Notes under the pieces: model-generated
Seen by the model: the letters and a program-made list of their open reading frames with translations, nothing else
What the model was told of the DNA's origin: nothing
Database searches by the model: none
Shown here: positions 13,138 through 41,696 of the stretch, in pieces
Position numbering within the stretch: the first letter of the stretch is position 1
Layout of the letters: each line of letters opens with the position of its first letter
Translations under genes and position numbers: made by a program
DNA from: Paracoccaceae bacterium
Lineage (GTDB): Bacteria > Pseudomonadota > Alphaproteobacteria > Rhodobacterales > Rhodobacteraceae
DNA: 46,672 bases
Assembly: GCA_027045905.1 (NCBI GenBank)
Contig: JALTZY010000194.1
Coordinates: 1-46,672, forward strand
Reading direction: 5' to 3'

Positions 13138-13304
13138 AGACCGCTTTCTCCGCCCTGCTGCTCGTGGTGGTCATCGCTCTGGCCAGCTTCAGTTTCGCCC
13201 CGGAAGGCGCGCTCAAGGGGCCGGTGCTGTGGGCCGGCCTGGGGGTGCTGATGCTTGCCGGTGGGTTGGTCTGGTGGCTTGACTGGCGGAGGCGTGATGA
13301 CTGA
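13134..13304 (+). CDS. 56-aa two-TM membrane peptide (below the ORF-track length cutoff)
   Basis: My manual translation is MKTAFSALLLVVVIALASFSFAPEGALKGPVLWAGLGVLMLAGGLVWWLDWRRRDD. Its ATG overlaps the upstream stop (ATGA), and its 3' end overlaps the next ATG by 8 nt. Third codon positions are G/C-rich. Confidence 0.6.
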   Translation: MKTAFSALLLVVVIALASFSFAPEGALKGPVLWAGLGVLMLAGGLVWWLDWRRRDD

Positions 13305-14443: not shown

Positions 14444-14520
14444 GCCGGGCTTGAGCCCGGCGACCGGCCGGGGGCGCTGCCCCCGGACCCCCGGAGTATT
14501 TGCAGAAAGATGAAAAGGGA
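14444..14520 (+). repeat. REP-like element copy B (hairpins GCCGGGC-TTGA-GCCCGGC and CCGGGGG-CGCTG-CCCCCGG plus tail ACCCCCGGAGTATT-TGCA-GAAAGATGAAAAGGG)
   Basis: Read directly. It fills the 90-nt gap between the 379-aa gene and the AAA+ gene. Its purine-rich 3' end (AAGGGA) sits 7 nt before ATG 14527. Confidence 0.8.
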
Positions 14521-14526
14521 AAATCC

Positions 14527-16467: not shown

Positions 16468-16781
16468 GTTTTTTCCTCGACATCGCCCTGCCCGTCCTCG
16501 CCCTGATGGGGCTGGCGCTGGGGTTACCCTATCTGTGGGCGCTTTTTGTGCCGGAAGGGATTGGCGGGCTGGTGGTGAGCGGGCTGTTGTCGGTGGCAGT
16601 GATTGCGGCGGCGGTATCGGTTTACCTGCTGATCTGGTATGGTGGGGCGCGCGGCGTGGCTCCGGGCGCGCTCGTGGTATTTCTGGGGCTATGGGTCGCC
16701 AAGACCGCGCTGGCCTGGGCGCCGATGCTGGTGCTGGGGCTGGCGGCGCAGCCGCGGCGCTGGAAGGAGGCGGTGTGGTGA
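16464..16781 (+). CDS. 105-aa three-TM membrane protein
   Basis: Its ATG overlaps the AAA+ stop (ATGA at 16464-16467). It has three hydrophobic stretches of about 22-26 aa. Confidence 0.75.
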   Translation: MSFFLDIALPVLALMGLALGLPYLWALFVPEGIGGLVVSGLLSVAVIAAAVSVYLLIWYGGARGVAPGALVVFLGLWVAKTALAWAPMLVLGLAAQPRRWKEAVW

Positions 16782-16818
16782 GAAAGAGCTTGTGGCGGAC
16801 CCTGTGGATGGTGCGGGA

Positions 16819-16907
16819 GCGAGGGGCCAGCCCCTCGCGCTGCAGGTTGATGCGAGGGGCCAGCCCCTCGCGCTCCCCGGAGTATTTCCCGAAAGATGAA
16901 AGGGGGG
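16819..16907 (+). repeat. REP-like element copy C (tandemly duplicated hairpin GCGAGGGGCCAGCCCCTCGC at 16819-16838 and 16852-16871, plus tail GCTCCCCGGAGTATT-TCCC-GAAAGATGAAAGGGGGG)
   Basis: Read directly. It fills the gap between the 105-aa gene and the 470-aa gene, and its 3' G-run abuts the GTG start at 16909. Confidence 0.8.
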
Positions 16908-16908
16908 C

Positions 16909-18321
16909 GTGGTGAAGCGGCTGATCGAACGCGGGTTGATGTTCGGCAACATGATCCGGGTGGACAGCCCGGCGCTGATCCGCCGCTACAATCGCGCCAT
17001 GAAGGCGCTTTGCGGGCGCGAGACGGCGCTTGGGGAATTTCACATCGACATATCCGGCTACAGCCCCGAAATCGGCGAGGAGCTCGGCGATGAGCTCTAT
17101 CTGAACCCCAATGGCTGCAACCGGCAGTTCATCATTCTCACCACCGAGCAGAAGAAGGCACCTTTGCTCAATGCCAAGTTCTCGACTTCGCGCGGAATAT
17201 TGCGCCGGTTCATCACCGATAACGAGGCGAAGCTGTTTGCGCTCACGGCCAATGACGCGGTGGCCGGCGAGCTTGACAATTCGGTGTTCGAGGTCGAAAG
17301 CCCGGCGCGGCTGTTTGACATCCGTCGCATCGTCGTGCGCGCCGACACCACGCAGGCGCATGTGAAGAATGCCCGCAAGCTGGCCGAGAAGATCGACCGT
17401 TTCATGCAGGAGCCGGATGCCTGGCACGATGATGTGCTGATCGCCGAGATGATCCTGCTGGCGGAAAAGACCGGCGATATCACCCGCAACCCGGTCGATC
17501 TCGACCAGCCTGCCTATGAGCAGGGCAATTTCCACACCTCGCTGTTTGGCGGCATCTACATCTTCCGCGATGTGGAGCATCCGGCGGCGATCGTCATGGG
17601 CGATCGGGGGAAGCTGGGCAAGCTGCCGATTGCCGATACTTTCGGGAGCGATCAGCCCAATGGCATCGCCACCTTTCTTGACCTCAACAATCTGGTCGAG
17701 CCGGTAATCAAGGCGCGCGGGGTCAATGGCGCGCGTATCCTGCGCGAAAAGATGGATTTCATCGTCGTCGATGCCGCCAGCAGCGCCGGGATCGACCTGG
17801 GCGACATGACCCCGCGCGATCTGCACCGCGCCGCCCAGCGGCTGGGGCGTGATCTGCCCGAGGCGTTCAAGGGGCTGGCGGCGCTGGTGCGCTGGGCCGA
17901 AAACGGCGGCAAGTGGCCGCGCATCACCAGCGAGCACCCGGCCTATTTCTACTCCCTGCGCGCGCGCCCCGGCCACCCGGACCGCGACCTGATCAACCAG
18001 CTCCTGGCCGAGCTCAGCCCGCTCGATTTCCGCCAGCTGTTCATCATGCACAAGGAGGCATTCTATGCCGCCTATCGCACATGGGGCGAGCAGAAGCGCG
18101 AATATGCGGCCGAGTTCCTCTACCGCGACTACATGGCCAACAAGGCCGGGGCGCGCGAGGCGCTGTTCGGCGGGCTGGAGGCGGTGCCGGAAGCGCCCGA
18201 TGCGCCGCCTCCGCCGCCCCCGCCTTCGGACGGTGAGAATCTGGTCGATCTGGTCGGCCCCTGGGGCGCGGTCCGGCGCGCGCGCAGGGCATCGCGGAGG
18301 AGGAAGGGACCATGGGACTGA
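16909..18321 (+). CDS. 470-aa soluble protein of unknown function with a Pro-rich then Arg-rich C-terminal tail
   Basis: The ORF starts at GTG 16909 (GTG GTG AAG). It has coding-type codon bias. The tail reads PDAPPPPPPPSDGENLVDLVGPWGAVRRARRASRRRKGPWD. I recognise no catalytic motif. Confidence 0.8.
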   Translation: MVKRLIERGLMFGNMIRVDSPALIRRYNRAMKALCGRETALGEFHIDISGYSPEIGEELGDELYLNPNGCNRQFIILTTEQKKAPLLNAKFSTSRGILRRFITDNEAKLFALTANDAVAGELDNSVFEVESPARLFDIRRIVVRADTTQAHVKNARKLAEKIDRFMQEPDAWHDDVLIAEMILLAEKTGDITRNPVDLDQPAYEQGNFHTSLFGGIYIFRDVEHPAAIVMGDRGKLGKLPIADTFGSDQPNGIATFLDLNNLVEPVIKARGVNGARILREKMDFIVVDAASSAGIDLGDMTPRDLHRAAQRLGRDLPEAFKGLAALVRWAENGGKWPRITSEHPAYFYSLRARPGHPDRDLINQLLAELSPLDFRQLFIMHKEAFYAAYRTWGEQKREYAAEFLYRDYMANKAGAREALFGGLEAVPEAPDAPPPPPPPSDGENLVDLVGPWGAVRRARRASRRRKGPWD

Positions 18322-18587
18322 TCCGCCTGATCGTCTTCGGCTTCATTGCGCTCAGCGTGATCTATTTCGCCATCTCCATCTATTCGCGCTCGGTCAGGCG
18401 CGAGAAGCTCGAAAACCGGTGGGCCGAGGAAAACCCCGGCTCCGATGACATGGAGGCGCGCACCGCCTATGTGGAAAGGGGCCTGAAGGAATACGACAAT
18501 TCCATCCGGCCCAGGCTGATCCTGCTGGTCTATGTCATCCCCACCGTCATCGTCATCGCCACCCTGATCGCCGTCAACTGGAACTGA
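18312..18587 (+). CDS. 91-aa two-TM membrane protein
   Basis: ATG 18312 follows AGGAAGGGA and overlaps the upstream gene by 10 nt. TM segments sit at both ends, with a charged loop between them. Confidence 0.75.
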   Translation: MGLIRLIVFGFIALSVIYFAISIYSRSVRREKLENRWAEENPGSDDMEARTAYVERGLKEYDNSIRPRLILLVYVIPTVIVIATLIAVNWN

Positions 18588-18597
18588 GGAGAGCGCC

Positions 18598-19284
18598 ATG
18601 CGCAAAGTGACCCTGACCCTGAAGGTGCTGGCCCTGGTGCTGGCCGGCGCGCTCCTGCATTACGTCCTGCCCCAGCACGACGTGGCCCGCATCACCTCGA
18701 CCGAGGTGATCCGCATGGATTTCACCCGGTTCAACCGCCTCTTCTTCGCCCAGCCCGACAGCGGCAATCAGGAATTCGCCACCCGTGACATCCGCCTGAT
18801 CAACACGATGCGCAAGAAGACCTGGCTGCTGGGCTTCATCCGCCGCGATGCCGAGGGGGTGATGGTATATCGCAACGAGGATACCGGCTGGATCTGGCCG
18901 CCCTATTTCAAGTTCGACAGTTCCGACCTGCAGGCCGAGGCCAGCGCCAATATCTCGACCCCGGACAAGCCGCAATGGGTGGTGATCACCCATTACGGCT
19001 GGCGCAACCGCTTCTTTACCGTCTATCCCAACGCGGTGGTGATCCGGCCGGTATCCGGGCCCGATGTGACCATCATCCCGTGGTTCAATATCTTCTTTTT
19101 CCTGTTCCTCGCGGCCGCATGGCTGTTTGTCCGGGCCATGTGGCGGCAGTTTCGCGAGCGCACCATCGACCCGGCGCTGGAAAGCGCGGGGGAGACATGG
19201 GAGCAGGTGGACGAACGCGCAAGCCGGGCCCGCGGCCGCTTCACGCGCTGGCTCGCCACCTGGCGGGGCAAGCCGCGCCGGTGA
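18598..19284 (+). CDS. 228-aa membrane-anchored protein, DUF1523-like
   Basis: ATG 18598 follows GAGGAGAG. It has an N-terminal TM, a central domain with WPPYFKFDS, and a second TM (IIPWFNIFFFLFLAAAWLF). The DUF1523 assignment is from memory and unverified. Confidence 0.75.
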   Translation: MRKVTLTLKVLALVLAGALLHYVLPQHDVARITSTEVIRMDFTRFNRLFFAQPDSGNQEFATRDIRLINTMRKKTWLLGFIRRDAEGVMVYRNEDTGWIWPPYFKFDSSDLQAEASANISTPDKPQWVVITHYGWRNRFFTVYPNAVVIRPVSGPDVTIIPWFNIFFFLFLAAAWLFVRAMWRQFRERTIDPALESAGETWEQVDERASRARGRFTRWLATWRGKPRR

Positions 19285-23809: not shown

Positions 23810-25198
23810 TCATGCGTGAATCGCTCCGTCACCGCAATCGAGCGCCGCTTCGCGCACCGCCTCCGAGAAGGCCGGATGCGCATGGCAGGTGCGGGCGAGG
23901 TCTTCGGCGCTGGCGCCGAATTCCATCGCAACGCAGGCCTCATGGATCAGCTCCCCCGCCGCCGGGCCGATGATGTGCACGCCCAGGATCCGGTCGGTCT
24001 CCTGATCCGAAAGGATTTTCACGAATCCTTCCCCCTGGAAGACCGTCTTGGCCCGGGCATTGGCCATGAAGGAGAACTTGCCCACCTTGTAGGCCCACCC
24101 GGCCTCTTTCAGCGCCTCTTCGCTCTGGCCCACACTGGCCACTTCGGGGCTGGTATAGATTACGCCGGGGATCACGTCGTAATTCACATGGCCCGCCTGG
24201 CCCGCGATGCACTCGGCCACCATGATGCCCTCTTCCTCGGCCTTGTGGGCGAGCATCGGGCCTTCGGTCACATCGCCGATCGCCCAGATGCCCGCAACCG
24301 ACGTGCGGCCCTGGGCGTCGGTCGCGATCTGCCCGCGTTCGGTCATCTTCAGACCCAGCGCCTCGGGTGCGATACCGGCAAGGAAGGGGCGGCGTCCGGT
24401 GGCGACAAGCACGGTATCGGCTTCGAGCACGTTTGCCGAGCCGTCCTTCTTCAGTTCATAGGTCAGTTTCAGCTTGGTCTTGAGCTTCTCCACGACCTTG
24501 ACCGCCGCGCCAAGGATGAATGTAAGCCCCTGTTTTTTCATCGATCTTTGCAGAGCCTTGCCGAGCCCCTTGTCGAGCCCCGGGGTGATATGGTCGAGAT
24601 ACTCCACCACCGTCACCTCGGCGCCGAGCCGGGCATAGACCGAGCCGAGCTCGAGCCCGATTACCCCGGCGCCGATCACCACCAGGCGCTTCGGGATCCT
24701 GCCCAGCGACAGCGCCCCGGTCGAGGTGACGACGCGCTCTTCATCCACCTCCACACCGGGCAGGCTCGCGGCCTCAGATCCGGTGGCAATCACGATATGG
24801 CGGGCGGAATGGACCTCTTCATCCACCCGGACCTTGCCCGGGCCGAGGATCTCGCCCCAGCCCTTCATCCAGTCTATCTTGTTCTTTTTAAACAGGAACT
24901 CGATGCCTCTGGTGTTCTGCTCCACCACCGCATCCTTGTATTCGAGCATCTTCGGCCAATCAACCGAGGGCGCCTTTCCCCTCAGCCCCATGGCGGCGAA
25001 ATTGTGCTCTGCCTCATGCAGCATGTGGCTCGCATGCAGGAGCGCCTTTGATGGAATGCAGCCCACATTCAGGCAGGTCCCGCCCAGGGTTTCGCGGCCC
25101 TCGACCACCGCCGTCTTCAGCCCCAACTGGGCGCAGCGGATCGCCGAGACATAGCCCCCCGGCCCGGCACCGATGATAATCACGTCATAGTCTGCCAT
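23810..25198 (-). CDS. lpdA: dihydrolipoyl dehydrogenase (E3)
   Basis: It contains [12 protein letters not shown], the redox disulfide [13 protein letters not shown], and a C-terminal HAHP motif. It is the last gene of the suc cluster. Confidence 0.93.
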
Positions 25199-25317
25199 GT
25201 GGGTCTCCTTTGGCGGAACTCTTGGCTGTTTTCCCGGCCGCCAGAGCGCATGCGCAATCTGCGCGGCCGGAATATCCTGAATATTTGCGCCCCTGCAGGG
25301 TCATCGCCTCGCTCTGC

Positions 25318-25329
25318 TTGTGATCACAA
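25318..25329. promoter_or_regulatory. 12-bp perfect palindrome TTGTGATCACAA overlapping the sucB stop, about 125 nt upstream of the lpdA ATG
   Basis: Read directly. The same GTGATCAC core occurs as paired sites upstream of sucC and sdhC. Confidence 0.45.
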
Positions 25330-26883
25330 ATCCATCAGCAGGCGGCGCGGATCTTCGAGCGCTTCCTTGACGCGCACGAGGAAGGTCACCGCCCCCTTGC
25401 CGTCCACGATCCGGTGGTCATAGGAGAGCGCCAGATACATCATCGGCCGGATCACAATCTCGCCACCCACCACCACGGGCCGCTCCTGGATCTTGTGCAT
25501 GCCGAGGATCCCCGATTGCGGCGGGTTCAGGATCGGCGAAGACATCAGCGAGCCATAGACCCCGCCATTGGAGATGGTGAAGGAGCCGCCCTGCATCTCG
25601 GCCAGGCTCAGCTTGCCCTCACGCGCGCGCTTGCCCAGTTCGGCGATCTTCTGCTCGATGGCGTGAAACGACATCTGCTCGGCATTGCGGATCACCGGCA
25701 CGACAAGACCGCTGGGCGTGCCCACCGCCACGCCCATATGGACGTAATGCTTGTAAACCACCTCATCGCCGTCGATCTCGGCATTGACCTCGGGCACCTC
25801 GTTCAGCGCATGCACGCAGGCCTTGACGAAGAACGACATGAAGCCGAGCTTGACCCCATGCTTTTTCAGGAACAGGTCCTTGTATTCATTGCGCAGTTCC
25901 ATGATCGCCGACATGTCCGCCTCGTTATAGGTGGTCAGGATCGCAGCCGTATTCTGGGCCTCCTTCAGACGGCGGGCGATGGTCTGGCGCAGGCGGGTCA
26001 TCTTCACCCGCTCCTCGCGCGCCGCATCCTCGGCGGGGACGGTCGGGCGCGGCGCGGCTGGAGCCGCAGGCGCGGCGGGGACGGCAGGCACGCTCGTCGC
26101 AGCGGTCGGAGTTGCGGCGGCAGAGGCGGCGATGGCGGCCTGCACGTCCTCCTTCATCACCCGGCCATCGCGGCCGGTGCCCTGGACCTGATCGCGCGAG
26201 AGCCCGGCTTCGGCCATGGCCTTCTTCGCCGAAGGCGCGTCCTCCACGTCCCGCTTCGGCGCCGAAGGCGCCGCCCCCGAATCCGCCGGGGCGCCGACCC
26301 CAGTCGGCGCAACGCTGCCGGAGGTGGCGATGATCGCCAGCCGCGCGCCCGGGCTCACCACCTCCCCTTCGGGCGCGGCGATCTCGGCCAGAACACCCGC
26401 CTGTGGTGCGGGCACCTCGACCGAAACCTTGTCGGTCTCCAGTTCGCACAGCATTTCGTCGGCAGCCACCGCATCGCCCGGCTGCCTGTACCAGGTCGCG
26501 ACCGTGGCTTCGGTGACGCTCTCGCCCAGGGTCGGCACGACGACCTCCACCGCCCCGCCGCCGGCGGCATCCGGCGCGGTGGGGGCCGGGCTCGGGGCGC
26601 CTGCCGGAGCCTCTGCCACCGGGGCTGGCGGGGCGCCCGCGCCTTCCTCGATCCGTGCCAGAAGCGCACCGACCCCCACGGTCTCGCCTTCCGCGGCAAT
26701 GATTTCCGCCAGCGTCCCGGCCACCGGCGCGGGCACTTCCACCGTCACCTTGTCGGTCTCCAGTTCGCACAGCATTTCATCGGCCGCCACCGCATCGCCG
26801 GGCTTCTTGAACCAGGTCGCGACCGTGGCCTCGGTGACGCTCTCGCCCAAAGCGGGCACATGTACTTCTACTTCCTTGCTCAT
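25324..26883 (-). CDS. sucB: dihydrolipoyllysine-residue succinyltransferase (E2 of 2-oxoglutarate dehydrogenase) with two lipoyl domains
   Basis: Two copies of [13 protein letters not shown]...ELETDKV are followed by Ala/Pro linkers, an E3-binding segment and a catalytic domain with the DHR motif (SYDHRIVDG). The ATG at 26883 overlaps the sucA stop (ATGA). Confidence 0.92.
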
Positions 26884-29855
26884 GCTTCGTTTCCTTCGAT
26901 GGCGAGCGCGTCTCTGACCAGCGCTTCCTGTTGTTCCTTGTGCGACCTGGCGAGCCCGGTAGCCGGCGAGGCCGAGGCCGGACGCCCGGCATAGGCAGGG
27001 CGGGTATTGACAGCGCCGATACGACCCAGCACCCACTCGATATTGGGCTCGATGAAGGTCCAGGCTCCCTGATTCTTGGGCTCTTCCTGGCACCAGACGA
27101 ATTCCGCCCCCTTGAAGCGCTCCAGTTCCTTGACCATGGACAGCGCCGGGAAGGGGTAGAATTGCTCGATCCTGAGCAAGTAGATATCGTCGATCCCGGC
27201 GGCATCGCGTGCCTCCAGCAGGTCGTAATAGACCTTGCCCGAGCACAGGACCACGCGGCGAATCTTCTCGTCCGCTACCAGCCTGGTGGGCGAACACCCG
27301 ATTTGCGCGTCATCCCACAGCACACGGTGAAAGGAGGAACCGGTGGTGAAGTCCTCGCGCCGCGACACCGCCTTCTTGTGGCGCAGGAGCGATTTCGGCG
27401 TCATCAGGATCAGCGGCTTGCGGAACGAGCGGTGCAGCTGGCGGCGCAGGATGTGGAAATAGTTGGCCGGGGTGGTGCAATTGGCCACGATCCAGTTATC
27501 CCCCCCCGAAAGCTGCAGGTAGCGCTCGAGCCGGGCCGAACTGTGCTCCGGCCCCTGCCCCTCGAAGCCATGCGGCAGCAGGCAGACCAGCCCGGACATG
27601 CGCAGCCACTTGGCCTCGCCCGAGGAAATGAACTGGTCGAACATGATCTGCGCGCCATTGGCAAAGTCGCCGAACTGCGCCTCCCACATGACCAGCGCAT
27701 TGGGCTCAGCCAGCGAATAGCCGTACTCGAAGCCCAGCACCGCGTATTCCGAGAGCATCGAATCGATCACCTCGTAGCGGGCCTGGCCCTCGCGGATATG
27801 GTTGAGCGGGTAGTAGCGCTCTTCGCTCTCCTGGTCGATGAAGGCCGAGTGGCGCTGGCTGAAGGTGCCGCGGGTGCTGTCCTGCCCGGCCAGGCGCACC
27901 GGATAGTTCTCGAGCAGCAGCGAGCCGAAGGCCAGCGCCTCGCCGGTGGCCCAGTCGATCCCCTCGCCCGCCTCCAGCGCCTGCTGCTTGGCCGCGAGCA
28001 TCCGCCCCACGGTCTTGTGCAGATGGAAGCCCTCGGGCACCCGGGTCAGGGCCGCCGCCACCTCGTCATAGGTCTCGGGCGCGATCGCGGTCTCTCCGCG
28101 CTGGTATTCCTTGCCTTGGCGGTCGAGCTTCGACCAGCGCCCGTCGAGCCAGTCGGCCTTGCTCGGGCGGTAACTCTTGCCGGCCTCGAATTCCTCGTTG
28201 AGAAAGGCCTGGAAGGCCATCTTCATGTCCTCGACCTCCACCGGGTCGATCAGCCCGTCGGCGGCCAGCCGCTCGGTATAGAGCTGGAGCGTGGTCGGGT
28301 GCTGCTTGATCCGCTTGTACATCAGCGGATTGGTGAACATCGGCTCATCGCCCTCGTTATGACCGAAACGGCGATAGCAGAACATGTCGATCACCACGTC
28401 CTTGTGGAACTTCTGGCGGAACTCGGTCGCCACCTTGGCGGCGTGGACCACCGCCTCGGGGTCGTCGCCATTGACGTGGAAGATCGGCGCTTCGACCATC
28501 AGCGCGATATCGGTGGGATAGGGCGAGGAGCGGCTGAAATGCGGCGCGGTGGTGAAGCCGATCTGATTGTTGACGACGATATGGATCGTGCCGCCGGTGC
28601 GGTGGCCGACAAGGCCAGAGAGCCCGAAACACTCGGCCACGATCCCCTGGCCGGCAAAGGCCGCATCCCCGTGCAGCAGCACCGGCAGCACCCGGGCGCG
28701 CTCTGCGTCCTCGCGCTGGTCCTGCTTGGCCCGCACCTTGCCCAGCACCACCGGGTTCACCGCCTCGAGGTGGCTCGGATTGGCGGTCAGGCTGAGATGC
28801 ACCTTGTTGCCGTCGAACTCGCGGTCGGAAGAGGCACCGAGGTGATATTTCACGTCGCCCGAGCCGTCCACATCCTCAGGCTTGAAGGAGCCGCCCTGGA
28901 ATTCGTTGAAAATGGCTCGAAACGGCTTGCCCATCACGTTCGCGAGCACGCTCAGGCGGCCGCGATGGGGCATGCCGATCACGATCTCCTCCACCCCCAG
29001 CGCACCGCCGCGCTTGATGATCTGCTCCATTGCCGGGATCAGGCTCTCGCCCCCGTCGAGGCCGAAGCGCTTGGTGCCCATATACTTGACATGCAGGAAT
29101 TTCTCGAAGCCCTCGGCCTCGACCAGCTTCTTCAGGATCGCCTTGCGGCCCATCCGGGTGAACTGGATCTCCTTGCCCAGGCCTTCGATGCGCTCCTTGA
29201 GCCAGCCCGCCTGCTCCGGGTTGGAAATATGCATGTATTGCAGCGCGAAAGTGCCGCAATAGGTGCGGTTCACGATCTCCATGATCTGGCGCATGGTCGC
29301 TGTCTGCAGCCCCAACACGTTGTCGATGAAGATCGGCCGGTCCATATCGGCCTCGGTGAAGCCGTAGGAAGCCGGGGCAAGCTCCGGGAGCGCCGGGATC
29401 TCGCGCAGGCCCAGCGGGTCGAGCCTGGCCTTTCGGTGGCCGCGGATGCGGTAGGCGCGGATGATCATCAGCGCGCGGATCGAGTCGAGCACGGCGCGGC
29501 GCACCTGCTCGTCCGAGACGCTGACCTCGCGCTTCTCGGCCTCGGCGACGATCTTTTCGGCGATCTTGGCGCCATCCTGCGGCCCGGTCTCCTCGGGCCA
29601 CATGCCATCGAGCGCGTGGGTGAGCTCGTCATCGGGCATCGGCGGCCAGTCGGCCCGCGCCCAGGAGGGGCCGGCGGCCTCGGCCTCCACATCGCTTCCG
29701 GCATCGCCCAGCGCCGCGAAATACTCCGCCCAGGCCGCATCCACCGCCTGCGGGTCGCGCGCCCACCGGGCATAGAGATGCTCCATGTAATCGGCATTGT
29801 GCCCCTGCAGGAAGGATGAGGCCCGGAAGCTTTCGTTTGGCGAATGATCGTTCAT
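26880..29855 (-). CDS. sucA: 2-oxoglutarate dehydrogenase E1 component
   Basis: The 991-aa product is collinear with SucA, with blocks such as [14 protein letters not shown] and [12 protein letters not shown]. The gene order is sucA-sucB-lpdA. Confidence 0.95.
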
Positions 29856-29884
29856 GATATGCTCCGTTGCGGAGGATGAAAGGG

Positions 29885-30601
29885 TTACTGGGTCGGGGGC
29901 TTGCGGTGCAGATTGGCTGAAACGAGGGCGCCGTGGCGTGAGAAAACCCCGGTCTTGTCGGGATCGGGGGCCATGCGGGAAGCATCCGGCTGAATGAGGG
30001 GCAGCAGGGAGGACCGGCGCGCATGCCGATCTTCGACCAGGTAACCTGGCAGCGAGCGAAAGATCGTGCCCGACTCGGGAACAAAGGTTGCCGCCCCCCC
30101 TTCAAGGGTGCGCGCCATGTCGTCGCGGGTCAGGACAGCATTGCATGAAACATCTTCGCCCCAGGCGAAATGGATGACATCGACGCGCAGGACCGATCCC
30201 GAAGCACTGGCAAAGAACGTATGAGAAACCGGGCTGCCGGGCGGCAAAAGCTTGCGCAGATCACCGCGCGCATTGGCCCGGGCAAAACCCCAATCCATTG
30301 CGAGCCTGTCGGCGGTTGTCGGGGCCTCACCAATCCGCTCCCACAGACGCGCAAGCGCGAACGCATCCAGCATCGGCTCGCTCAAGGATTCCGCCGTGAC
30401 GACCGCCCAGCCAAGCCTGCCGAGTTCCTCGGGCTGCACCGCCCCTCCAAGGCACGCCTCGACCGTCAACCGGTCCAGCCCCCCCTCGCGCTGAGACGCC
30501 ATTGCGGCGGGTGGGGGCACTATGGTCACAAGCGCCAGACCGAGCGCAGCGAGGCCCCCGAATCGCCCGAATTTTCTGCGAAAATTCGCGGCCACCGCCA
30601 C
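29885..30601 (-). CDS. 238-aa predicted secreted protein of unknown function, inserted between sucD and sucA
   Basis: The ORF has a signal-like N-terminus (RRKFGRFGGLAALGLALVTIVPPPAAMA). Its GTG start at 30601 and first codons overlap the palindromic repeat at 30568-30588, so the start is uncertain. Confidence 0.5.
   Translation of the reverse strand: MAVAANFRRKFGRFGGLAALGLALVTIVPPPAAMASQREGGLDRLTVEACLGGAVQPEELGRLGWAVVTAESLSEPMLDAFALARLWERIGEAPTTADRLAMDWGFARANARGDLRKLLPPGSPVSHTFFASASGSVLRVDVIHFAWGEDVSCNAVLTRDDMARTLEGGAATFVPESGTIFRSLPGYLVEDRHARRSSLLPLIQPDASRMAPDPDKTGVFSRHGALVSANLHRKPPTQ
30568..30588. repeat. A/T-cored palindrome CGAATTTTC-TGC-GAAAATTCG preceded by CCCCCGAATC
   Basis: Read directly. 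It lies 17 nt downstream of the sucD stop on the minus strand. It is related to the copies at 133-156 and 23777-23797. Confidence 0.6.
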
Positions 30602-30604
30602 CTC

Positions 30605-31486
<882 letters not shown>

Positions 31487-31510
31487 GACGGCGCTCCTCT
31501 GTTTTCTGTT

Positions 31511-32053
31511 TCAGTCGTATTGCTTCTTGATGGAGGTGGCGATTTCGACGCCGCGTTCGGTGCTGTAGTCGAGCGCCACGGCGAGGGCGTCATTGGCGGC
31601 GTTGTGAAGCAGCCAGTCATGGCCGTCCACATGCGGGCTGGGATCGTCCTCGATACTTTCCAGATGGTTGGGATCGCGGGCGGTGATCTCGGCATCCAGC
31701 GCCGCCTCGACCTCCTTGTAGGCATCATGGTCGCCCAGCGGCGGGGCGAAGGTGATCATGCAGGCGACATGATCGACCCCGCGCGTCACCACCACCTGCT
31801 GCTGAAGCGGGATGCCGAACATCGCCGCCTGATCGGTATCGCTCAGCGCCATCAGCCCCATCCCGGCCGCCGCATCGCGCGCCGCCTTGAACGGGGTCGC
31901 CACATCGCCGGTTTCGGCAAACAGGCAGGGCCCGGTCGCAAGCGCGATGAAGGCATCGAGGTCCGGCCCGTTGCCAGTGTCGGCCTGCTGCGACCATGCC
32001 GGCCCCGCAATCAGAGCCGCGCCCAGAACAAAGGCTGAAATACCCGCTTTCAT
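31511..32053 (-). CDS. 180-aa predicted secreted protein of unknown function, inserted between sucC and sucD
   Basis: ATG 32053 follows a GAGAGG ribosome-binding site. The signal peptide is MKAGISAFVLGAALIAGPAWSQ. I recognise no motif. Confidence 0.6.
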   Translation of the reverse strand: MKAGISAFVLGAALIAGPAWSQQADTGNGPDLDAFIALATGPCLFAETGDVATPFKAARDAAAGMGLMALSDTDQAAMFGIPLQQQVVVTRGVDHVACMITFAPPLGDHDAYKEVEAALDAEITARDPNHLESIEDDPSPHVDGHDWLLHNAANDALAVALDYSTERGVEIATSIKKQYD

Positions 32054-32101
32054 GTCGATACCTCTCTATTATTGATCCGCGAAAATATCCCTGAAAAGTC
32101 G

Positions 32102-33295
32102 TTACCCCTTCACCGCCTTGACGATCTTACGTGCCGCGTCCCCCAGATCGTCGGCCGCGATCACGTCGAGGCCGCTTTCATTGAGGATGCGCTTGCCCTC
32201 TTCCACCTTGGTGCCTTCAAGCCGCACCACCAGCGGCACGGAGAGGCCCACATCCTTCACGGCCTGCACCACGCCTTCGGCGATCACGTCACAGCGCATG
32301 ATGCCGCCGAAGATATTGACGAGGATGCCCTTCACCTTGGGGTCGGAAGTGATGATCTTGAACGCCGCGGTGACCTTCTCGGTGGTCGCCCCGCCGCCCA
32401 CATCGAGGAAGTTCGCGGGCTCCGCGCCATAGAGCTTGATGATGTCCATGGTGGCCATGGCCAGCCCCGCGCCATTGACCATGCAGCCGATCTCGCCATC
32501 GAGCGCGATATAGTTGAGGTCGTATTTCGATGCCTCCAGCTCCCTGGGGTCCTCCTCCGAGGTATCGCGCAGATCGGCGATGTCGGGGTGGCGGTAGAGC
32601 GCGTTGTTGTCAAAGCCCATCTTGGCATCGAGGCACAGAAGCTGGCCCTCGCCGGTCAGCACCAACGGGTTGATCTCCAGCATCTCCATGTCCTTGTCGA
32701 TGAACATCTGGTAAAGCGTGCCCATCAGCGCCACGCATTGCTTGACCTGCTTGCCCGCAAGCCCGAGCGCAAAGGCGATGCGCCGTCCGTGAAAGGGCTG
32801 GTAGCCGGTGGCCGGATCGACGCTGAAGGAGAGGATCTTCTCCGGCGTGCTCGCCGCCACTTCCTCGATATCCATGCCGCCCTCGGTGGAAGCGACGAAA
32901 GAGACGCGGCTCGACTGCCGGTCCACCAGCAGGGCGAGATAGAATTCGCGGGCGATATCGGCGCCATCCTCGATATAGATGCGCCCGACTTCCTTGCCCA
33001 CAGACCCGGTCTGCTTGGTGACAAGCGTGCGCCCGAGCATCTTGCGCGCTTCCTCGGCGGCCTCGCTCACCGAGCGGGCAAGGCGCACGCCGCCGCCTTC
33101 GCCGGCCTCGGCTTCCTTGAAGCTGCCCTTGCCGCGCCCGCCGGCATGGATCTGCGCCTTGACCACCCAGACCGGGCCGTCAAGCTCCCCGGCGGCAGTC
33201 TTGGCCTCTTCGGCACGGGTTACGAGGCGGCCGTCGCTGACCGGGGCACCGGCGGCGCGCAGCAGTGCCTTGGCCTGATACTCGTGGATATTCAT
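32102..33295 (-). CDS. sucC: succinate--CoA ligase (ADP-forming) subunit beta
   Basis: The product begins [22 protein letters not shown] at ATG 33295, and the ATP-grasp region is collinear with SucC. Confidence 0.95.
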
Positions 33296-33408
33296 GAATG
33301 CGTCCTGTCTGTTCAAGAGCCCGTCTTCGGCGGGACCATGCCTGACAGATTTGTGTAAAGAAACGGTTTTTTCCTTGAAACAAGGAAAGATGACAGATTT
33401 CTTCGATT

Positions 33409-33440
33409 TTGTGATCACGCGAAAATAAGTGTGATCACAC
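33409..33440. promoter_or_regulatory. pair of GTGATCAC palindromes (cores 33411-33418 and 33431-33438, 20 bp apart) upstream of sucC
   Basis: Read directly. The second site is the 12-bp perfect palindrome GTGTGATCACAC. The sites are centred about 119 and 139 nt upstream of the sucC ATG, in the mdh-sucC gap. Confidence 0.5.
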
Positions 33441-33535
33441 ATTCCGTTTTCGGCATTGATTCGATACCGCCCCGTCGCGAAGCCCCCGGTGCCCGGCACC
33501 GGGGGCTGAAAGGTGCGCCAGGCGGTCCGGCCCGG

Positions 33536-35005
<1,470 letters not shown>

Positions 35006-35119
35006 TTAACCATGCGCACGCCGCCCCGCGCGCCGTTTCTGCGGCGCGGCACAAAAGGGCTTGCGGAAAGGTGCCCATATGTGGTCGTTTGCGCAAGAAT
35101 ATTGCCCGGAGGCAGAATC

Positions 35120-35980
35120 ATGACCCAGACCGACCGCCCCTTCCGCTCCGTCCTCTACATCCCCGCCGACAAGCCGCGCGCGCTCGACAAGGCGCGCACG
35201 CTTGCCTGCGACGCGATCATCTTCGACCTCGAAGACGCGGTGGCGCCCGATGCCAAGGACGCGGCCCGCCAGACGCTGAGGGAAGAGCTCGCCCGCGGCG
35301 GCTACGGGGCGCGTTTCCGCCTGGTGCGGGTCAACGGGCTCGATACCGAATGGGGCCGGCGCGACCTGGTGGAACTGCGCGAGGCCGATTTCGACGCCCT
35401 GCTGATCCCCAAGGTCTCCACCGGCTGGGACGTGGAAGCGGCCGCCGAGCTTGCCGGCGACAAGCCGCTCTGGGCGATGATGGAGACACCGCCCGCCTTC
35501 ATCAATGCCTGCGAGATCGCCTCCCATACCCGCATGGAGGGGCTCGTGATGGGCACCAACGACCTCATCAAGGATCTCGGCTGCCGGGCACGGGCTGATC
35601 GCCTGCCGCTGCTCACCGCGCTGCAGACCTGCGTCATCGCCGCGCGCTCGGCGCGCATCCCGGCGATCGACGGGGTGTATAATACCTTTCGCGACGAAGA
35701 GGGCCTGCGCGCCGAATGCGAGCAGGGGCGCGATTTCGGTTTTGACGGCAAGACCCTGATCCACCCGGCCCAGCTTGCGGTGGCCAACGAGGTCTTTGCG
35801 CCCAGCGAGGAGGAGCTGGCGCTGGCCCGGCGCCAGATCGAGGCCTTCGAGGCGGCCAAGACAGAGGGCAGGGGGGTCGCGGTGCTGGACGGGCGGATCG
35901 TCGAGAGCCTGCATATCGTCACCGCCCGCGCGCTGCTCGAAAAGGCCGCGGCGATTGCCGAGATGGAGGCGGGCGCATGA
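35120..35980 (+). CDS. mcl2: CitE/HpcH-family protein, probable (3S)-malyl-CoA thioesterase / malyl-CoA lyase-like enzyme
   Basis: It shows the CitE-like pattern SVLYIPADKPRALDKA...DAIIFDLEDAV. The symbol comes from remembered R. sphaeroides synteny (mdh-suc / mcl2 / mch / sdh) and is not verified. Confidence 0.6.
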   Translation: MTQTDRPFRSVLYIPADKPRALDKARTLACDAIIFDLEDAVAPDAKDAARQTLREELARGGYGARFRLVRVNGLDTEWGRRDLVELREADFDALLIPKVSTGWDVEAAAELAGDKPLWAMMETPPAFINACEIASHTRMEGLVMGTNDLIKDLGCRARADRLPLLTALQTCVIAARSARIPAIDGVYNTFRDEEGLRAECEQGRDFGFDGKTLIHPAQLAVANEVFAPSEEELALARRQIEAFEAAKTEGRGVAVLDGRIVESLHIVTARALLEKAAAIAEMEAGA

Positions 35981-36180
35981 AGCTCTATCGCCTGCTCACC
36001 GAGGACGACACCGCCGCCTTCTGCCACAAGGTCACCGAAGCGCTGAACAGGGGCTGGGAACTGCACGGCTCGCCCTCTTACGCCTATGACGCAGGCAAGG
36101 GGGTGATGCGCTGCGCCCAGGCGGTGGTCAAGGAAGTGCCTGGCGAGTACAGCCCGGACCTGAAGCTGGGAGCACAATGA
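35977..36180 (+). CDS. DUF1737 family small protein
   Basis: The 67-aa product begins MKLYRLLTEDDTAAFCHKVTEALNRGWELHGSP. ATGA overlaps occur at both ends (35977 and 36177). Confidence 0.7.
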   Translation: MKLYRLLTEDDTAAFCHKVTEALNRGWELHGSPSYAYDAGKGVMRCAQAVVKEVPGEYSPDLKLGAQ

Positions 36181-37208
36181 TGCGCAAGACCGATCCGGGC
36201 CGCTTCTTCGAGGATTACCGGCTGGGCGATGTGATCACACATGCGGTGCCGCGCACCATCTCCGGCGGGGAGCGGGCGCTCTACCACGCGCTCTATCCGG
36301 CCCGCCACGCGCTTTATTCCTCCGACGACTTCGCCCGCGCCTGCGGTCTGCCCGCAAGCCCGCTTGACGACCTGATCGCCTTTCATACCGTGTTCGGCAA
36401 GACGGTGCCGAACATTTCGCTGAACGCGGTCGCCAATCTGGGCTATGCCGAGGGGCGCTGGCTGCGGCTGGTCTGGCCTGGCGACACCCTGCGCGCGGAG
36501 AGCGAAGTCATTGGCCTGAAACAGAATTCTTCCGGCAAGAGCGGTATCGTCTGGGTCCGCACGAGGGGGCTCGACCAGCGCGGTGAAACGGTGCTCGAAT
36601 ATGTGCGCTGGGTGATGGTACGCAAGCGTGATCACAGCGCGCCCGCGCCGCAGACGGTAGTGCCCGAGCTTGCCCGCGCGGTGGATGCAAGCCGCCTCGT
36701 CGTGCCGGCGGGGCTCGACTTCTCGGCCTACGACTTCACGCTGGCGGGCGAGGCGCATCGGCTCGGCGATTACGCCGTCGGCGAGGTGATCGACCATGTG
36801 GATGCGGTGACCATCGAGGAGGCCGAGCACATGCTCGCCACCCGCCTGTGGCAGAACACCGCCAAGGTGCATTTCGACGCCACCATGCGCGAGGATGGCC
36901 GCCGGCTGATCTATGGCGGCCATGTGATCAGCCTTGCCCGCGCGCTCAGCTTCAACGGGCTCGCCAATGCGCAGATGATCGTCGCCCTCAACGGCGGCAG
37001 CCACGCCAACCCCTGCTTTGCCGGCGATACGGTGCGGGCCTGGTCCGAGGTGCTGGACACGGCCGAAACCGGCGCACCGGGCGTGGGAGCGATCCGCCTG
37101 CGGCTGGTGGCCACAAGGGGCGAGGCGGGCGCGCTCAGGGGCGCGGACGGCAAATATCTGCCCGACGTGCTGCTCGACCTCGACTATTGGGCGCTGATGC
37201 CGCTCTGA
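36177..37208 (+). CDS. mch: MaoC-like double hot-dog dehydratase, probable mesaconyl-CoA hydratase
   Basis: The 343-aa product has a MaoC dehydratase layout. The symbol comes from remembered synteny and size in R. sphaeroides. Confidence 0.6.
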   Translation: MMRKTDPGRFFEDYRLGDVITHAVPRTISGGERALYHALYPARHALYSSDDFARACGLPASPLDDLIAFHTVFGKTVPNISLNAVANLGYAEGRWLRLVWPGDTLRAESEVIGLKQNSSGKSGIVWVRTRGLDQRGETVLEYVRWVMVRKRDHSAPAPQTVVPELARAVDASRLVVPAGLDFSAYDFTLAGEAHRLGDYAVGEVIDHVDAVTIEEAEHMLATRLWQNTAKVHFDATMREDGRRLIYGGHVISLARALSFNGLANAQMIVALNGGSHANPCFAGDTVRAWSEVLDTAETGAPGVGAIRLRLVATRGEAGALRGADGKYLPDVLLDLDYWALMPL

Positions 37209-37311
37209 AGCGCACTGCCGGGCGGCAAACCGGGCAAACGCCCCCCTCCCGCAGCATTTTCCAGGTGAAGAATGGCCTTGACGCATTAGGGAAATTGGCG
37301 ATTCTGAATGG

Positions 37312-38130
37312 ATGGGAAAGAAACGCATCTTCGCCCCGCAGGCAATTGTCCTTTCACTGCTGGCCGCGCCGGCAGCGGCGGACATCCGGGGCGACAAGGA
37401 CGATTTCACGAGAGCCCGCCCCGGCCCCGGACAGATCCTGCCTCCCGGAGAAGGCACGGAGGAAAGCGGCTTCAGGGACCCTGTGCAGCGCTTCATCGAA
37501 TCCAACGTGCTGGAAACCCTCTATCACGAGATGGCCCATGCGCTGATCGACAAGATGGACCTGCCCGTTTTCGGCCCCGAGGAATATGCCGCCGATTTCT
37601 TTGCCGCAGTGCTGCTGGACAGGGTGCATGACCAGGACACCACCCGCCAGCTGGTCGCCGATGTGCTGGCTTCCTATCGCCATGACGGCAGCCAGGGCGG
37701 CCATGTGGCCTGGGATGAGCACGGCAGCGCCATGCAGCGCTATTACAACCTTGCCTGCCTCTATTACGGCGCCGATCCGGAAGGGCGCAAGGGCGCGCTT
37801 GCCGCCTTCAGCCTGCCCGACGATCGCGCCGACACCTGCCCGTCGGAATATGAGCTGGCCAGCTTTGCCTGGGAGAGGGTGCTGGAGGAACTGGCCGAGG
37901 AAGCCCCGGGTGATTCGATCACGCTGGACTGGTATCTCGACAAGGACAGCCACCTGACCCGCTATGTGACCAGGGAGATCGAGGCTCTGAACCGGATGCT
38001 GGTACTCCCTGAGCCGATCGTGGTCAGTGTCATCCCCTGCGGCGAGGTCAATGCCTATTATGATCCCGACAAGAGCGAGATCATCATCTGCACGGAATTG
38101 TCCGATCATCTGGCCAGGATCGCTCCCTGA
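37312..38130 (+). CDS. putative secreted zinc metallopeptidase (DUF4344-like)
   Basis: It has a signal peptide, the HExxH motif (LYHEMAHALID) and FGPEEYAADFFAAVLL. The family name is from memory. Confidence 0.65.
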   Translation: MGKKRIFAPQAIVLSLLAAPAAADIRGDKDDFTRARPGPGQILPPGEGTEESGFRDPVQRFIESNVLETLYHEMAHALIDKMDLPVFGPEEYAADFFAAVLLDRVHDQDTTRQLVADVLASYRHDGSQGGHVAWDEHGSAMQRYYNLACLYYGADPEGRKGALAAFSLPDDRADTCPSEYELASFAWERVLEELAEEAPGDSITLDWYLDKDSHLTRYVTREIEALNRMLVLPEPIVVSVIPCGEVNAYYDPDKSEIIICTELSDHLARIAP

Positions 38131-38159
38131 GGCGAAGAGATTATCCGCATCTTCCGAAT

Positions 38160-38192
38160 ATGTGATCACGGCGAACATTCATGTGATCACGT
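38160..38192. promoter_or_regulatory. pair of GTGATCAC palindromes (cores 38162-38169 and 38183-38190, 21 bp apart) upstream of sdhC
   Basis: Read directly as ATATGTGATCACGG and TCATGTGATCACGT. The sites are centred about 144 and 123 nt upstream of the sdhC ATG. Confidence 0.5.
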
Positions 38193-38309
38193 ATGAATTT
38201 TTTCTGCAAAATCAGCCAAAACTGCCGGATTTTTCCGCGCTTCGTGCGTGACTCCGGCGTCGATCCGTCGCATTGTGAAACGGTATACCGCTGCATGGGA
38301 AGAACTGAC

Positions 38310-38693
38310 ATGTCTGACATGAAAACGGGCGCCCGCCCGCTGTCCCCGCATCTCCAGATCTACCGGATGCCGCTTAACGCCGTGCTCTCGATCGCCCACC
38401 GGATCACCGGAGCGGCCATGGCCGGAAGCGCGGCCCTGATCGTCTGGTGGTTCCTGGCCGCGGCGACATCCGAAGCGTATTTCGCCTTTGTCAACGGGCT
38501 TCTGACCTCCTGGGCAGGCGACATCCTGCTGGGCCTGTCGGCGCTGGCGCTGTGGTTCCATTTCTCCAATGGAATCCGCCACCTGGTGTGGGATACCGGC
38601 GCGCATATGGGCCGCAAGCGGGTGCGCCAGACCGGGTACGCGGCCATCGGCGCCACCCTGCTCCTGACCCTCCTGACCCTGTTCGCCCTCTAG
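38310..38693 (+). CDS. sdhC: succinate dehydrogenase cytochrome b556 subunit
   Basis: It contains RPLSPHLQIYRMPLNAVLSIAHRITG. The start is set at ATG 38310. Confidence 0.9.
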   Translation: MSDMKTGARPLSPHLQIYRMPLNAVLSIAHRITGAAMAGSAALIVWWFLAAATSEAYFAFVNGLLTSWAGDILLGLSALALWFHFSNGIRHLVWDTGAHMGRKRVRQTGYAAIGATLLLTLLTLFAL

Positions 38694-38710
38694 CACGGGA
38701 GAGCCTGACC

Positions 38711-39091
38711 ATGACTTCCTATCGCACCCCCCGCGCCCGGGTTGCCGGGCTGGGCAGCGCCCGCAGCGGCACCGGACATTTCTGGGAGCAGCGCATTACC
38801 GCGGTGGCGCTCCTGTTTCTGACACCGGCCTTCGTGATCACCTTTGCCCGCAACCTCGGAGGAGGCTTCGAGGAGGTGCGCGCCACCTATGCCAACCCGT
38901 CCAACGCGCTGGTCGCCCTGGCCTTCGTGATCACCGCTTTCCTGCACCTGTTTCAGGGCCTGACGGTGATCGTCGAGGATTATGTGCACGGACGCAAGGG
39001 CACCTTCCTGATCATCGCGATCCGCCTGCTGACAGCCCTGTTCGCACTGACCGGCATCTTCGCCATCCTGAAAATCGCCCTTGGCGCCTGA
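38711..39091 (+). CDS. sdhD: succinate dehydrogenase hydrophobic membrane anchor subunit
   Basis: The product begins [32 protein letters not shown], has three TM segments, and sits between sdhC and sdhA. Confidence 0.88.
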
Positions 39092-39101
39092 GAGGTTCGA
39101 C

Positions 39102-40904
39102 ATGGCAGCTTACGAAGTGGAAACGCACAATTATGACGTGGTGGTGGTGGGCGCCGGCGGCGCGGGTCTGCGCGCCACCCTGGGCATGGCCGAACAGGGC
39201 CTGCGCACGGCCTGTGTGACCAAGGTCTTTCCCACCCGCAGCCACACGGTCGCCGCCCAGGGCGGCATCGCCGCATCCCTGGGCAACATGGGGCCGGATC
39301 ACTGGCAGTGGCACATGTATGACACGATCAAGGGCTCGGACTGGCTGGGCGACATGGACGCCATGGAGTACCTTGCCCGCGAGGCCCCCCAGGCTGTGAT
39401 CGAGCTCGAACATTACGGCGTGCCGTTCTCGCGCACCGAAGAGGGCAAGATCTACCAGCGCCCCTTTGGCGGTCATACCACCGAATTCGGCGAAGGCCCG
39501 CCCGTGCAGCGCACCTGCGCCGCGGCCGACCGCACCGGGCATGCCATGCTGCATACGCTCTATGGCCAGAGCCTGAAACAGCGCGCCGAATTCTTCATCG
39601 AGTATTTCGCGCTCGACCTGATCATGGACGACGGGGCCTGCACCGGCATCATGGCCTGGAAGCTCGACGACGGCACGCTGCACCGCTTCAATGCCAAGCT
39701 CGTGGTGCTGGCCACCGGCGGCTACGGGCGGGCCTATTTCAACTGCACTTCGGCGCATACCTGCACCGGCGACGGGGCCGGCATGGTGGCGCGCGCGGGG
39801 CTGGCGCTGCAGGACATGGAATTCGTGCAGTTCCATCCCACCGGCATCTTCGGCCCGGGCATGCTGATCACCGAGGGTGCGCGTGGCGAAGGGGGCTACC
39901 TGACCAATTCGGAAGGCGAGCGCTTCATGGAGCGCTATGCGCCGACCTACAAGGACCTGGCCTCGCGCGACGTGGTCAGCCGCTGCATGACGCTGGAGAT
40001 CCGCGAGGGCCGCGGGGTCGGACCGAACAAGGACCATATCCATCTGAATCTCAGCCACCTGCCGCCCGAGGTGCTGGCCGAGCGCCTGCCCGGCATCTCC
40101 GAAAGCGCGAAGATCTTCGCCGGGGTGGACGTGACCCGCGAGCCGATCCCGGTGCTGCCCACGGTGCATTACAACATGGGCGGCATCCCGACCAATTACC
40201 GGGGCGAGGTGCTCGACCCCACCGAAGACGACCCAAACCGCGTCGTGCCCGGCCTGATGGCGGTGGGCGAAGCCGGCTGCGCCAGCGTTCACGGTGCCAA
40301 CCGGCTGGGTTCCAACAGCCTGATCGACTTGGTCGTTCTGGGCCGCGCCGCCTCGATTCGCGCGGGCGAGGTGGTGGACCGGCGGGGCGCGGTGCCACAG
40401 GCGCCGCGAGCACGGATCGACAGGATCATCGCCCGCTTCGACGCGATCCGCCACGCCGACGGCGCGGTGCCCACCGCCGAATTGCGGCTGGAGATGCAAA
40501 AGACCATGCAGGACGACGCCGCCGTTTTCCGCACCGAGGAAACGCTGGCCGAGGGTGTCGAAAAGATGACCGCGATCGCCGCCCGGCTCGACGATCTGCA
40601 CGTCACCGACCGCTCGCTGCACTGGAACACCGACCTGATGGAGACGCTGGAGCTGACCAATCTGATGCCCAATGCGCTGGCCACCATCAACGGCGCGCTC
40701 GCCCGCCGCGAAAGCCGCGGGGCGCATGCGCGCGAAGACTATCCAGAGCGCGACGACAAGAACTGGCGCAAGCACACGATCGCCCGCGTTGACGGCACCA
40801 GGGTCACCCTGAGCTACCGCCCGGTGGTGACCGAGCCGCTGACGCCGCCCGAAGCGGGCGGGATCGACCCGGAGAAGATCCAGCCGAAGAAGCGCGTCTA
40901 TTGA
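39102..40904 (+). CDS. sdhA: succinate dehydrogenase flavoprotein subunit
   Basis: It contains [14 protein letters not shown], the covalent-FAD region [11 protein letters not shown], and [11 protein letters not shown]. Confidence 0.95.
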
Positions 40905-40916
40905 GGAGAGAAGCAG

Positions 40917-41696
40917 ATGGTTGAACTCGCACTCCCGAAAAACAGCCGCATCCGGGTCGGCAAGACCTGGCCCAGACCGGAAGGCGCCACCAATCTGCGC
41001 AAGTTCCTGATCTATCGCTGGGTGCCGGAGGATGGCGAGAATCCGCGCATCGACACCTATTTCGTCGATACCGACGATTGCGGCCCGATGGTGCTGGACG
41101 CGCTGATCTGGATCAAGACCCATATCGACCCAAGCCTTGCCTTCCGCCGCTCGTGCCGCGAGGGGATCTGCGGGTCGTGCGCGATGAATATCGACGGGCA
41201 GAACCATCTCGCCTGCATTTTCGGCATGGACGAGGTCAAGGGCGATATCAGGATCTACCCCCTGCCCCATACCGAGGTGGTGCGCGACCTGATCCCGGAC
41301 CTCACCCATTTCTACGCCCAGCATGCCTCGATCCGCCCCTGGCTCGAGACGAGCAGCCCGGCGCCCGAGCGCGAATGGCGTCAGTCGATCGAGGATCGGG
41401 CGAAGCTCGACGGCCTCTACGAATGCGTCATGTGCGCCTCCTGCTCGACCTCGTGCCCCAGCTACTGGTGGAATTCCGACCGCTATCTCGGCCCTGCCGC
41501 GCTGCTCGCGGCCGAACGCTGGCTCGAGGACTCGCGCGACGAGGCCACCGGCGAGCGGCTCGACGAGCTCGAGGATCCGTTCCGGGTCTATCGCTGCCAC
41601 ACGATCATGAACTGCACCCAGACCTGCCCCAAGGGGCTGAACCCGGCCAAGGCAATCGCCGAGATCAAGAAGAAGCTGGTGGCGCGAGTCGTCTAG
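40917..41696 (+). CDS. sdhB: succinate dehydrogenase iron-sulfur subunit
   Basis: It has the three Cys clusters [27 protein letters not shown] and [17 protein letters not shown]. Confidence 0.95.

Follow-up and report, generated by a model that had tools for sequence, protein, structure and literature searches.

Paired palindromes upstream of two TCA-cycle operons

The locus raises the question which protein recognizes the two copies of the palindrome GTGATCAC that lie upstream of sdhCDAB in the window, i.e., the whole stretch of 46,672 nucleotides from an uncultured Rhodobacterales organism that was analyzed. A preliminary description had viewed these copies as part of a candidate operator shared by three TCA-cycle transcription units, and it had not recognized the sequence as the site of a described TCA regulator. 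The latter view had to be revised, because the sequence is the published motif of AkgR, GTGATCAC-N13-GTGATCAC (PMC4323418). The paired palindromes of the window are not a new element but the known AkgR site, seen here in a further, uncultured Rhodobacterales genome.

The first pair forms an AkgR-type composite site at 38162..38190, to which no strand is assigned. It consists of a distal copy (38162-38169), a 13-nt spacer and a proximal copy (38183-38190); both copies are exact, and they are 21 bp apart from start to start. The ATG of sdhC is at 38310, and thus the centers of the two cores lie 144.5 nt and 123.5 nt upstream of it, which confirms the coordinates and distances (about 144 and 123 nt) that had been given before. 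The second composite site, also without an assigned strand, is at 33411..33438, where mdh (33536-34498) and sucC (32102-33295), both on the minus strand, are separated by 240 nt. Its distal copy (33431-33438) and its proximal copy (33411-33418) are again exact, the spacer has 12 nt, and the spacing of 20 bp was the same as described earlier. The sucC ATG is at 33295 on the minus strand, and the cores are found 115 nt and 135 nt before it. The proximal core is, accordingly, separated from the first ATG by 115 nt at sucC and by 119 nt at sdhC, and the range for all sites is 115-145 nt upstream of the operon's first ATG. The core reads GT-GATC-AC, and the operators of GntR-family regulators are palindromes of the form GT-Nx-AC. 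GT-N4-AC is the signature of this family and its usual half-site arrangement.

The target operon of the first pair is sdhCDAB (38310..41696, plus strand), which was assigned with NCBIfam equivalog matches and the gene calls of the source contig. It comprises sdhC (38310-38693), sdhD (38711-39091), sdhA (39102-40904) and sdhB (40917-41696), all on the plus strand. The second pair precedes an operon that extends from sucC to lpdA (23810..33295, minus strand), which was also assigned with NCBIfam equivalog matches. On the minus strand, sucC is followed by a 180-aa ORF in the interval between sucC and sucD (31511-32053), to which no function could be assigned by family, and by sucD (30605-31486), sucA (26880-29855), sucB (25324 to about 26550) and lpdA (23810-25198). 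The gene order agrees with sucCDAB of Rhodobacter sphaeroides (RSP_0967-2), where the genes from sucC to lpdA were treated as one unit (PMC4323418).

Several further features were seen in and around these operons. The 180-aa ORF has a coding-like GC3 and is without a Pfam or NCBIfam match. The 749-nt gap between sucD and sucA (29856-30604) holds a 238-aa ORF, also without matches. Inserts between sucC and sucD are present also in relatives, with a variable size of 0 to 1.8 kb. The interval between mdh and sdh contains genes for a malyl-CoA lyase-like protein (HpcH/HpaI), a DUF1737 protein and a mesaconyl-CoA hydratase (35120-37208, plus strand), which were read as genes of the ethylmalonyl-CoA pathway. 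The gene directly upstream of the sdh AkgR site encodes a putative metallopeptidase (DUF4344). A poorly characterized cluster is located at 14500-19284 (plus strand), and it encodes an AAA ATPase (655 aa), a DUF6638 protein (470 aa), a 91-aa ORF and a DUF1523 protein (228 aa). It is preceded by two ORFs of 370 aa and 393 aa (12025-14436) without a family match.

Frequency of the palindrome in the window

The window contains 11 copies of GTGATCAC, compared to 0.58 +/- 0.71 copies expected from dinucleotide shuffles, and none of 100 shuffles reached this number. In the 4,961 nt of non-coding DNA that were scored, 0.053 copies were expected, and four fully intergenic copies as well as one copy across a stop codon were seen. 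The Poisson probability of this intergenic excess is about 3e-7, and on this basis a chance origin of the intergenic copies was rejected. It had been claimed that five intergenic copies all lie in front of TCA-cycle genes. Four of them are fully intergenic, and the copy assigned to lpdA overlaps the stop codon of sucB. The additional claim that all other intergenic regions of the window are free of the palindrome was borne out, and not even a copy with one mismatch was detected in any of them.

The six intragenic copies (10302, 18982, 36231, 36628, 38834 and 38927) had been attributed to codon preference. Five of them are read as Val-Ile-Thr (GTG ATC ACx) and one as Arg-Asp-His (CGT GAT CAC). 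When synonymous codons were shuffled within each of 39 genes, 3.6 +/- 1.3 intragenic copies were obtained (P = 0.07 for the six observed copies), and, therefore, codon usage is an adequate explanation for them. Relatives do not share the intragenic copies in sdhD and mch. Codon bias was also considered as a source of the intergenic copies and was rejected, as it accounts for the intragenic copies only. A methylation or restriction role of the internal GATC or of TGATCA was likewise found to be without support; GATC is common, with 417 copies in the window.

Identity with the AkgR site of Rhodobacter sphaeroides

AkgR (RSP_0981) is a GntR-family activator of R. sphaeroides, and its name stands for 'alpha-ketoglutarate regulator' (Imam, Noguera and Donohue, mBio 2015, PMC4323418). 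ChIP-seq and expression analyses in that species revealed that AkgR is bound at GTGATCAC-N13-GTGATCAC upstream of sucCDAB and sdh, the peaks were 58- and 84-fold, and the peak sequences with this motif are GTGATCACGGGCTCGAAGGGTGTGATCAC and GTGATCACAGGCCCGCATCTTGTGATCAC (PMC4323418). Seven weaker peaks were reported in addition, five with a lone exact GTGATCAC, one with GTTATCAC and one without a listed motif, and in none of these cases did the expression change (PMC4323418). Ectopic expression of akgR led to a 2- to 3-fold upregulation of the sucCD, sucAB and sdh transcripts, and deletion of akgR slowed the growth on alpha-ketoglutarate, pyruvate, acetate and propionate (PMC4323418). A later paper gives the same motif as the AkgR site. 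A full-text literature search for GTGATCAC yielded, outside the AkgR literature, only primer sequences.

As the published AkgR site agrees in its cores, in the arrangement as a pair and in both target operons, the locus is an ordinary instance of a known system. Judged from this match in sequence, the two pairs are very probably binding sites for an AkgR orthologue. The preliminary proposal that the palindromes are transcription factor sites for TCA-cycle operons was right, and AkgR ChIP-seq signals lie at the same two operons (PMC4323418). The term 'operator', in contrast, does not apply in the repressor sense, since AkgR is an activator.

Conservation among Rhodobacterales

Eighty loci of up to 21 kb each were fetched with the SucC protein of the window from contigs that represent one genome per species. 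L001-L019 are from Rhodobacterales/Paracoccaceae and have SucC identities of 79-85%. They include Leisingera, Phaeobacter, Sulfitobacter, Yoonia, Paracoccus, Roseinatronobacter, Cypionkella, Pseudorhodobacter, Amylibacter, Aquimixticola and several MAGs. As controls, 59 loci (975 kb) with the same genes from other Alphaproteobacteria were used, i.e., Rhizobiales, Caulobacterales, Sphingomonadales, Rhodospirillales and others.

All 19 Rhodobacterales loci have the pair upstream of sucC, at a distance of 105-147 nt to the start of the gene. Both copies are exact in 17 loci, and in L009 and L011 the second copy is GCGATCAC. Upstream of sdhC the pair is present in 12 of the 13 Rhodobacterales loci that reach the sdh promoter, and L015 has one copy. 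The spacer of the relatives is mostly 13 nt (17 of 19 at sucC). A spacer of 12 nt is shared by the sucC sites of L001 and L004 and the sdh site of L006, and, therefore, the 12-nt sucC spacer of the window is a recurrent variant. Altogether, L001-L019 have 73 copies of GTGATCAC and 28 pairs in 336 kb, whereas the 59 control loci have 19 copies and not a single pair.

The 12 sdh upstream regions were aligned with MAFFT (alignment A1), and the mean column identity was 43%. Only 22 columns are invariant, and 16 of these are the two 8-mers; the others are the start codon, the TG of a GTGAC box and one A. The surrounding intergenic sequence could not be aligned, with the exception of the GTGAC box. 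An exchange of the neighboring genes was found in L010, where mdh is the gene before sdh and mch the gene before sucC, opposite to the arrangement in the window. Both pairs were retained in this locus, showing that they track the downstream gene and not the upstream gene.

The sequence and position of the pairs, their statistical excess, their conservation and their restriction to Rhodobacterales are direct observations. With this conservation and with no pair in the 59 control loci, both an even spread of the motif over unrelated intergenic regions and its absence from the orthologous regions, the two outcomes that would have spoken against the preliminary description, were rejected. The result reproduces the 2015 prediction, made across Rhodobacterales for 20 species, that the motif lies upstream of sucCDAB and/or sdh (PMC4323418). 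It widens this prediction by about another 20 genera or MAGs, and the negative controls were clean.

Two further observations were made in this survey. A third exact GTGATCAC lies 104-150 nt upstream of the sdh pair in L010 (position 3118, Sulfitobacter, intergenic) and in L004 (position 4119, uncultured Rhodobacteraceae); these copies may be auxiliary sites. The AkgR motif is absent at both promoters in L016, L020 and L021. These three are MAGs of uncertain placement that are labeled only 'Pseudomonadota', and their SucC identity is 75-80%. In all three mdh adjoins sucCDAB, and in L020 sdh is also located upstream. They may represent the phylogenetic boundary of the AkgR regulon.

Putative promoter elements and their distance to the AkgR sites

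The GTGAC box is nearly invariant in the 12 sdh upstream regions of A1. It lies 57-60 nt downstream of the proximal core in 8 of the 11 sequences scored, and the exceptions are two Paracoccus loci (47 nt) and Sulfitobacter (80 nt). Between the box and the sdhC ATG the spacing is variable (56 to 99 nt). In most sequences a CTAT-like element follows about 16-17 nt after the box, and the two elements together resemble the alphaproteobacterial -35/-10 pattern and probably are the sdh promoter. In the window the putative promoter is at 38248..38276 (plus strand), with a -35-like GTGACT (38248-38253), 17 nt, and a -10-like CATTGT (38271-38276). CATTGT is the best -10 candidate of the window, and it is weak. 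Relative to the predicted start, the centers of the AkgR cores would be at about -97 and -118. A sigma-70 scan of 33200-38400 did not reveal a promoter. The scan uses an E. coli-type consensus and the host is an alphaproteobacterium, so this result was expected, and conservation was used instead to place the sdh promoter.

At sucC, 10 of 19 sequences (the window and 18 relatives) have a C(G/C)TTT box downstream of the proximal core, at a distance of 44 or 45 nt. At 33340-33366 (minus strand) the window has a conserved A-rich run together with a C(G/C)TTT(A) box, which is shared with nine relatives, among them L001, L004, L005, L006, L008, L011, L015 and L019. This box could be a promoter element or the site of another regulator.

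The paired AkgR sites keep a fixed distance to downstream promoter-like boxes. The two exceptional distances at sdh, 47 nt and 80 nt, are shorter than 57-60 nt by about one helical turn and longer by about two, respectively, which looks like helical phasing. That the AkgR pairs act from an unusually distant, helically phased position and/or that in this lineage lpdA has its own AkgR-responsive promoter inside the operon, provided by the copy at the sucB stop codon, is possible, but we regard it as rather doubtful. If true, helical phasing would mean face-of-helix-dependent activation from roughly -97 and -118, a mode of action that is not described for AkgR.

The lone copy at the sucB stop codon

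The lone copy of GTGATCAC is at 25320..25327, again without an assigned strand. It overlaps the end of sucB, whose stop codon is its TGA (G-TGA-TCAC, minus strand), and the ATG of lpdA follows 121 nt downstream. The preliminary description had based a third TCA-cycle transcription unit on it, which would imply an operon-internal, AkgR-controlled promoter that drives lpdA. This copy is the only other non-coding GTGATCAC in the window, and its distance to the lpdA ATG is close to that of the proximal copies from their genes, 115 nt for sucC and 119 nt for sdhC. In addition, lone copies give a weak ChIP enrichment in R. sphaeroides (PMC4323418). However, no partner is present even at one mismatch, half of the copy is the stop codon, and the lone sites of R. 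sphaeroides were without an effect on expression in a species in which sucC to lpdA are treated as one unit (PMC4323418). The comparison with 14 relatives points in the same direction. None of them has an exact or one-mismatch GTGATCAC at or near the sucB stop codon, none has an exact copy 100-150 nt before lpdA, and in most of them the interval between sucB and lpdA carries additional genes.

As the copy stands alone, as none of the 14 relatives has it, and as lone copies did not affect expression in R. sphaeroides, a third AkgR-controlled unit is unsupported, and an internal lpdA promoter of this kind is unlikely. Two of the three transcription units proposed initially, those starting with sdhC and sucC, are supported. 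The copy at lpdA is probably a non-functional or weak half-site.

Alternative explanations and the regulator gene

The two identical palindromes of a pair are also inverted repeats of each other, and so the pairs could form an RNA or DNA hairpin, a terminator or processing signal of the upstream DUF4344 or mdh gene, and not a protein site. The predicted RNA hairpins have energies of -17.2 kcal/mol at sdh (z = -2.9) and, at sucC, of -15.7 kcal/mol in the sense of mdh and -19.7 kcal/mol on the opposite strand; the overall range is -16 to -20 kcal/mol, with z = -2.7 to -3.4. The sequence TTTTTT is found within 8 nt after the sdh hairpin, and a terminator scan flagged 33410-33439. This hit is, however, on the strand antisense to mdh; in the sense of mdh, it is AAAATCGAAG and not a T-run that comes after the hairpin. 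The loops have 12-13 nt and the stems only 50% G+C, and thus the G+C-rich stem, the short loop and the direct T-run on the sense strand of a Rho-independent terminator are not seen together at these sites. Each arm is itself palindromic, which is unneeded for a hairpin, and the 8-mers are invariant across genera without compensatory changes, whereas a structural element would covary. Furthermore, the pairs stay with sucC and sdhC after the change of the upstream gene in L010, and the sites of R. sphaeroides were shown by ChIP-seq to be bound by a protein (PMC4323418). A hairpin function is, on this evidence, extremely improbable, and the capacity to form hairpins is probably a by-product of the repeated palindrome. 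Hairpins of 9 to 13 bp are possible at 38150-38215 and 33395-33455, where flanking bases lengthen the stem.

A regulator other than an AkgR orthologue could recognize the same palindrome in this organism. A point in favor is that the sequence of the contig that was read contains no akgR-like gene. Pfam and NCBIfam scans of about 50 ORFs of the window revealed no GntR-family protein, and no GntR-family gene was present in the roughly 56 kb that were read of the 59.7-kb metagenomic source scaffold, where the 10 kb beyond the window contain only ccoNOQP, usp, prs and atp genes (atpAGDC). A tblastn search of the window and all loci with E. coli PdhR and FadR probes gave a single match, a truncated HTH with which the L011 locus ends. 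The akgR gene is two genes away from sdh in R. sphaeroides, and this linkage is kept neither here nor in those loci of relatives that extend past sdhB. Against another regulator stands that the sites are identical with the experimentally defined AkgR sites in their core, pair architecture, target operons and taxonomic range, and that GT-N4-AC is the GntR-family signature. Binding by another regulator is thus very unlikely. No akgR gene was found on the roughly 56 kb of contig that were read, and that AkgR is encoded by the source organism is therefore inferred.

Proposed mode of action

According to the GntR-family rule, each 8-bp palindrome (GT-N4-AC) would be bound by one AkgR dimer, and the two dimers, 20-21 bp apart, would be located on the same face of the helix. 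The preliminary description had proposed a dimeric HTH regulator for palindromes that are two helical turns apart, and the arrangement indeed fits two HTH dimers. From its fixed position upstream of the promoter, the AkgR pair would lead to a modest activation (2- to 3-fold in R. sphaeroides) of the sucC-sucD-sucA-sucB-lpdA operon and the sdhCDAB operon. The activation would provide more capacity for the steps from 2-oxoglutarate to fumarate when flux through the TCA cycle is needed, e.g., with alpha-ketoglutarate, pyruvate, acetate or propionate as growth substrate. The binding in vivo, the activation and the growth phenotype are findings from R. sphaeroides, where the effects were small (about 2-fold).

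The sdhCDAB and sucCDAB-lpdA operons of an uncultured Rhodobacterales organism can thus be assigned to the AkgR regulon. The tolerance of a 12-nt spacer at AkgR sites and the fixed distance between the pair and the promoter-like boxes downstream are small refinements of the known system, and the significance beyond annotation is little.

Comparison with known systems

PdhR and FadR of E. coli are GntR regulators of the FadR subfamily that control central carbon or respiratory genes. Their operators have in common with the sites described here that they are short GT-Nx-AC palindromes, that they are bound by a winged-HTH dimer, and that the targets are carbon or respiratory genes, but their sequence and spacing are different. 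In addition, PdhR and FadR are mainly repressors that use single sites overlapping the promoter, whereas AkgR is an activator with a tandem pair of sites about 100 nt upstream.

CceR, a LacI-family protein with the site (T/C)GTT-N6-AAC(A/T), co-regulates sdh in R. sphaeroides and was reported at the sdh promoter together with AkgR. Like AkgR, it is a Rhodobacterales regulator of TCA and energy genes, but its motif is different. The CceR motif has no exact match in the whole window, and its three one-mismatch matches in the non-coding DNA of the window are all outside the sdh upstream region.

The closest counterparts are the AkgR sites of Rhodobacter (Cereibacter) sphaeroides 2.4.1. The differences are that the spacer sequences are unrelated, the sucC spacer of the window has 12 nt instead of 13 nt, akgR is not adjacent to sdh on the contig of the window, and the window has the extra lone copy at the sucB stop codon. 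In contrast, the 8-bp core GTGATCAC and its presence in two copies are the same, as are the 13-nt spacer at sdh, both target operons, the place before the first gene, and the order Rhodobacterales.
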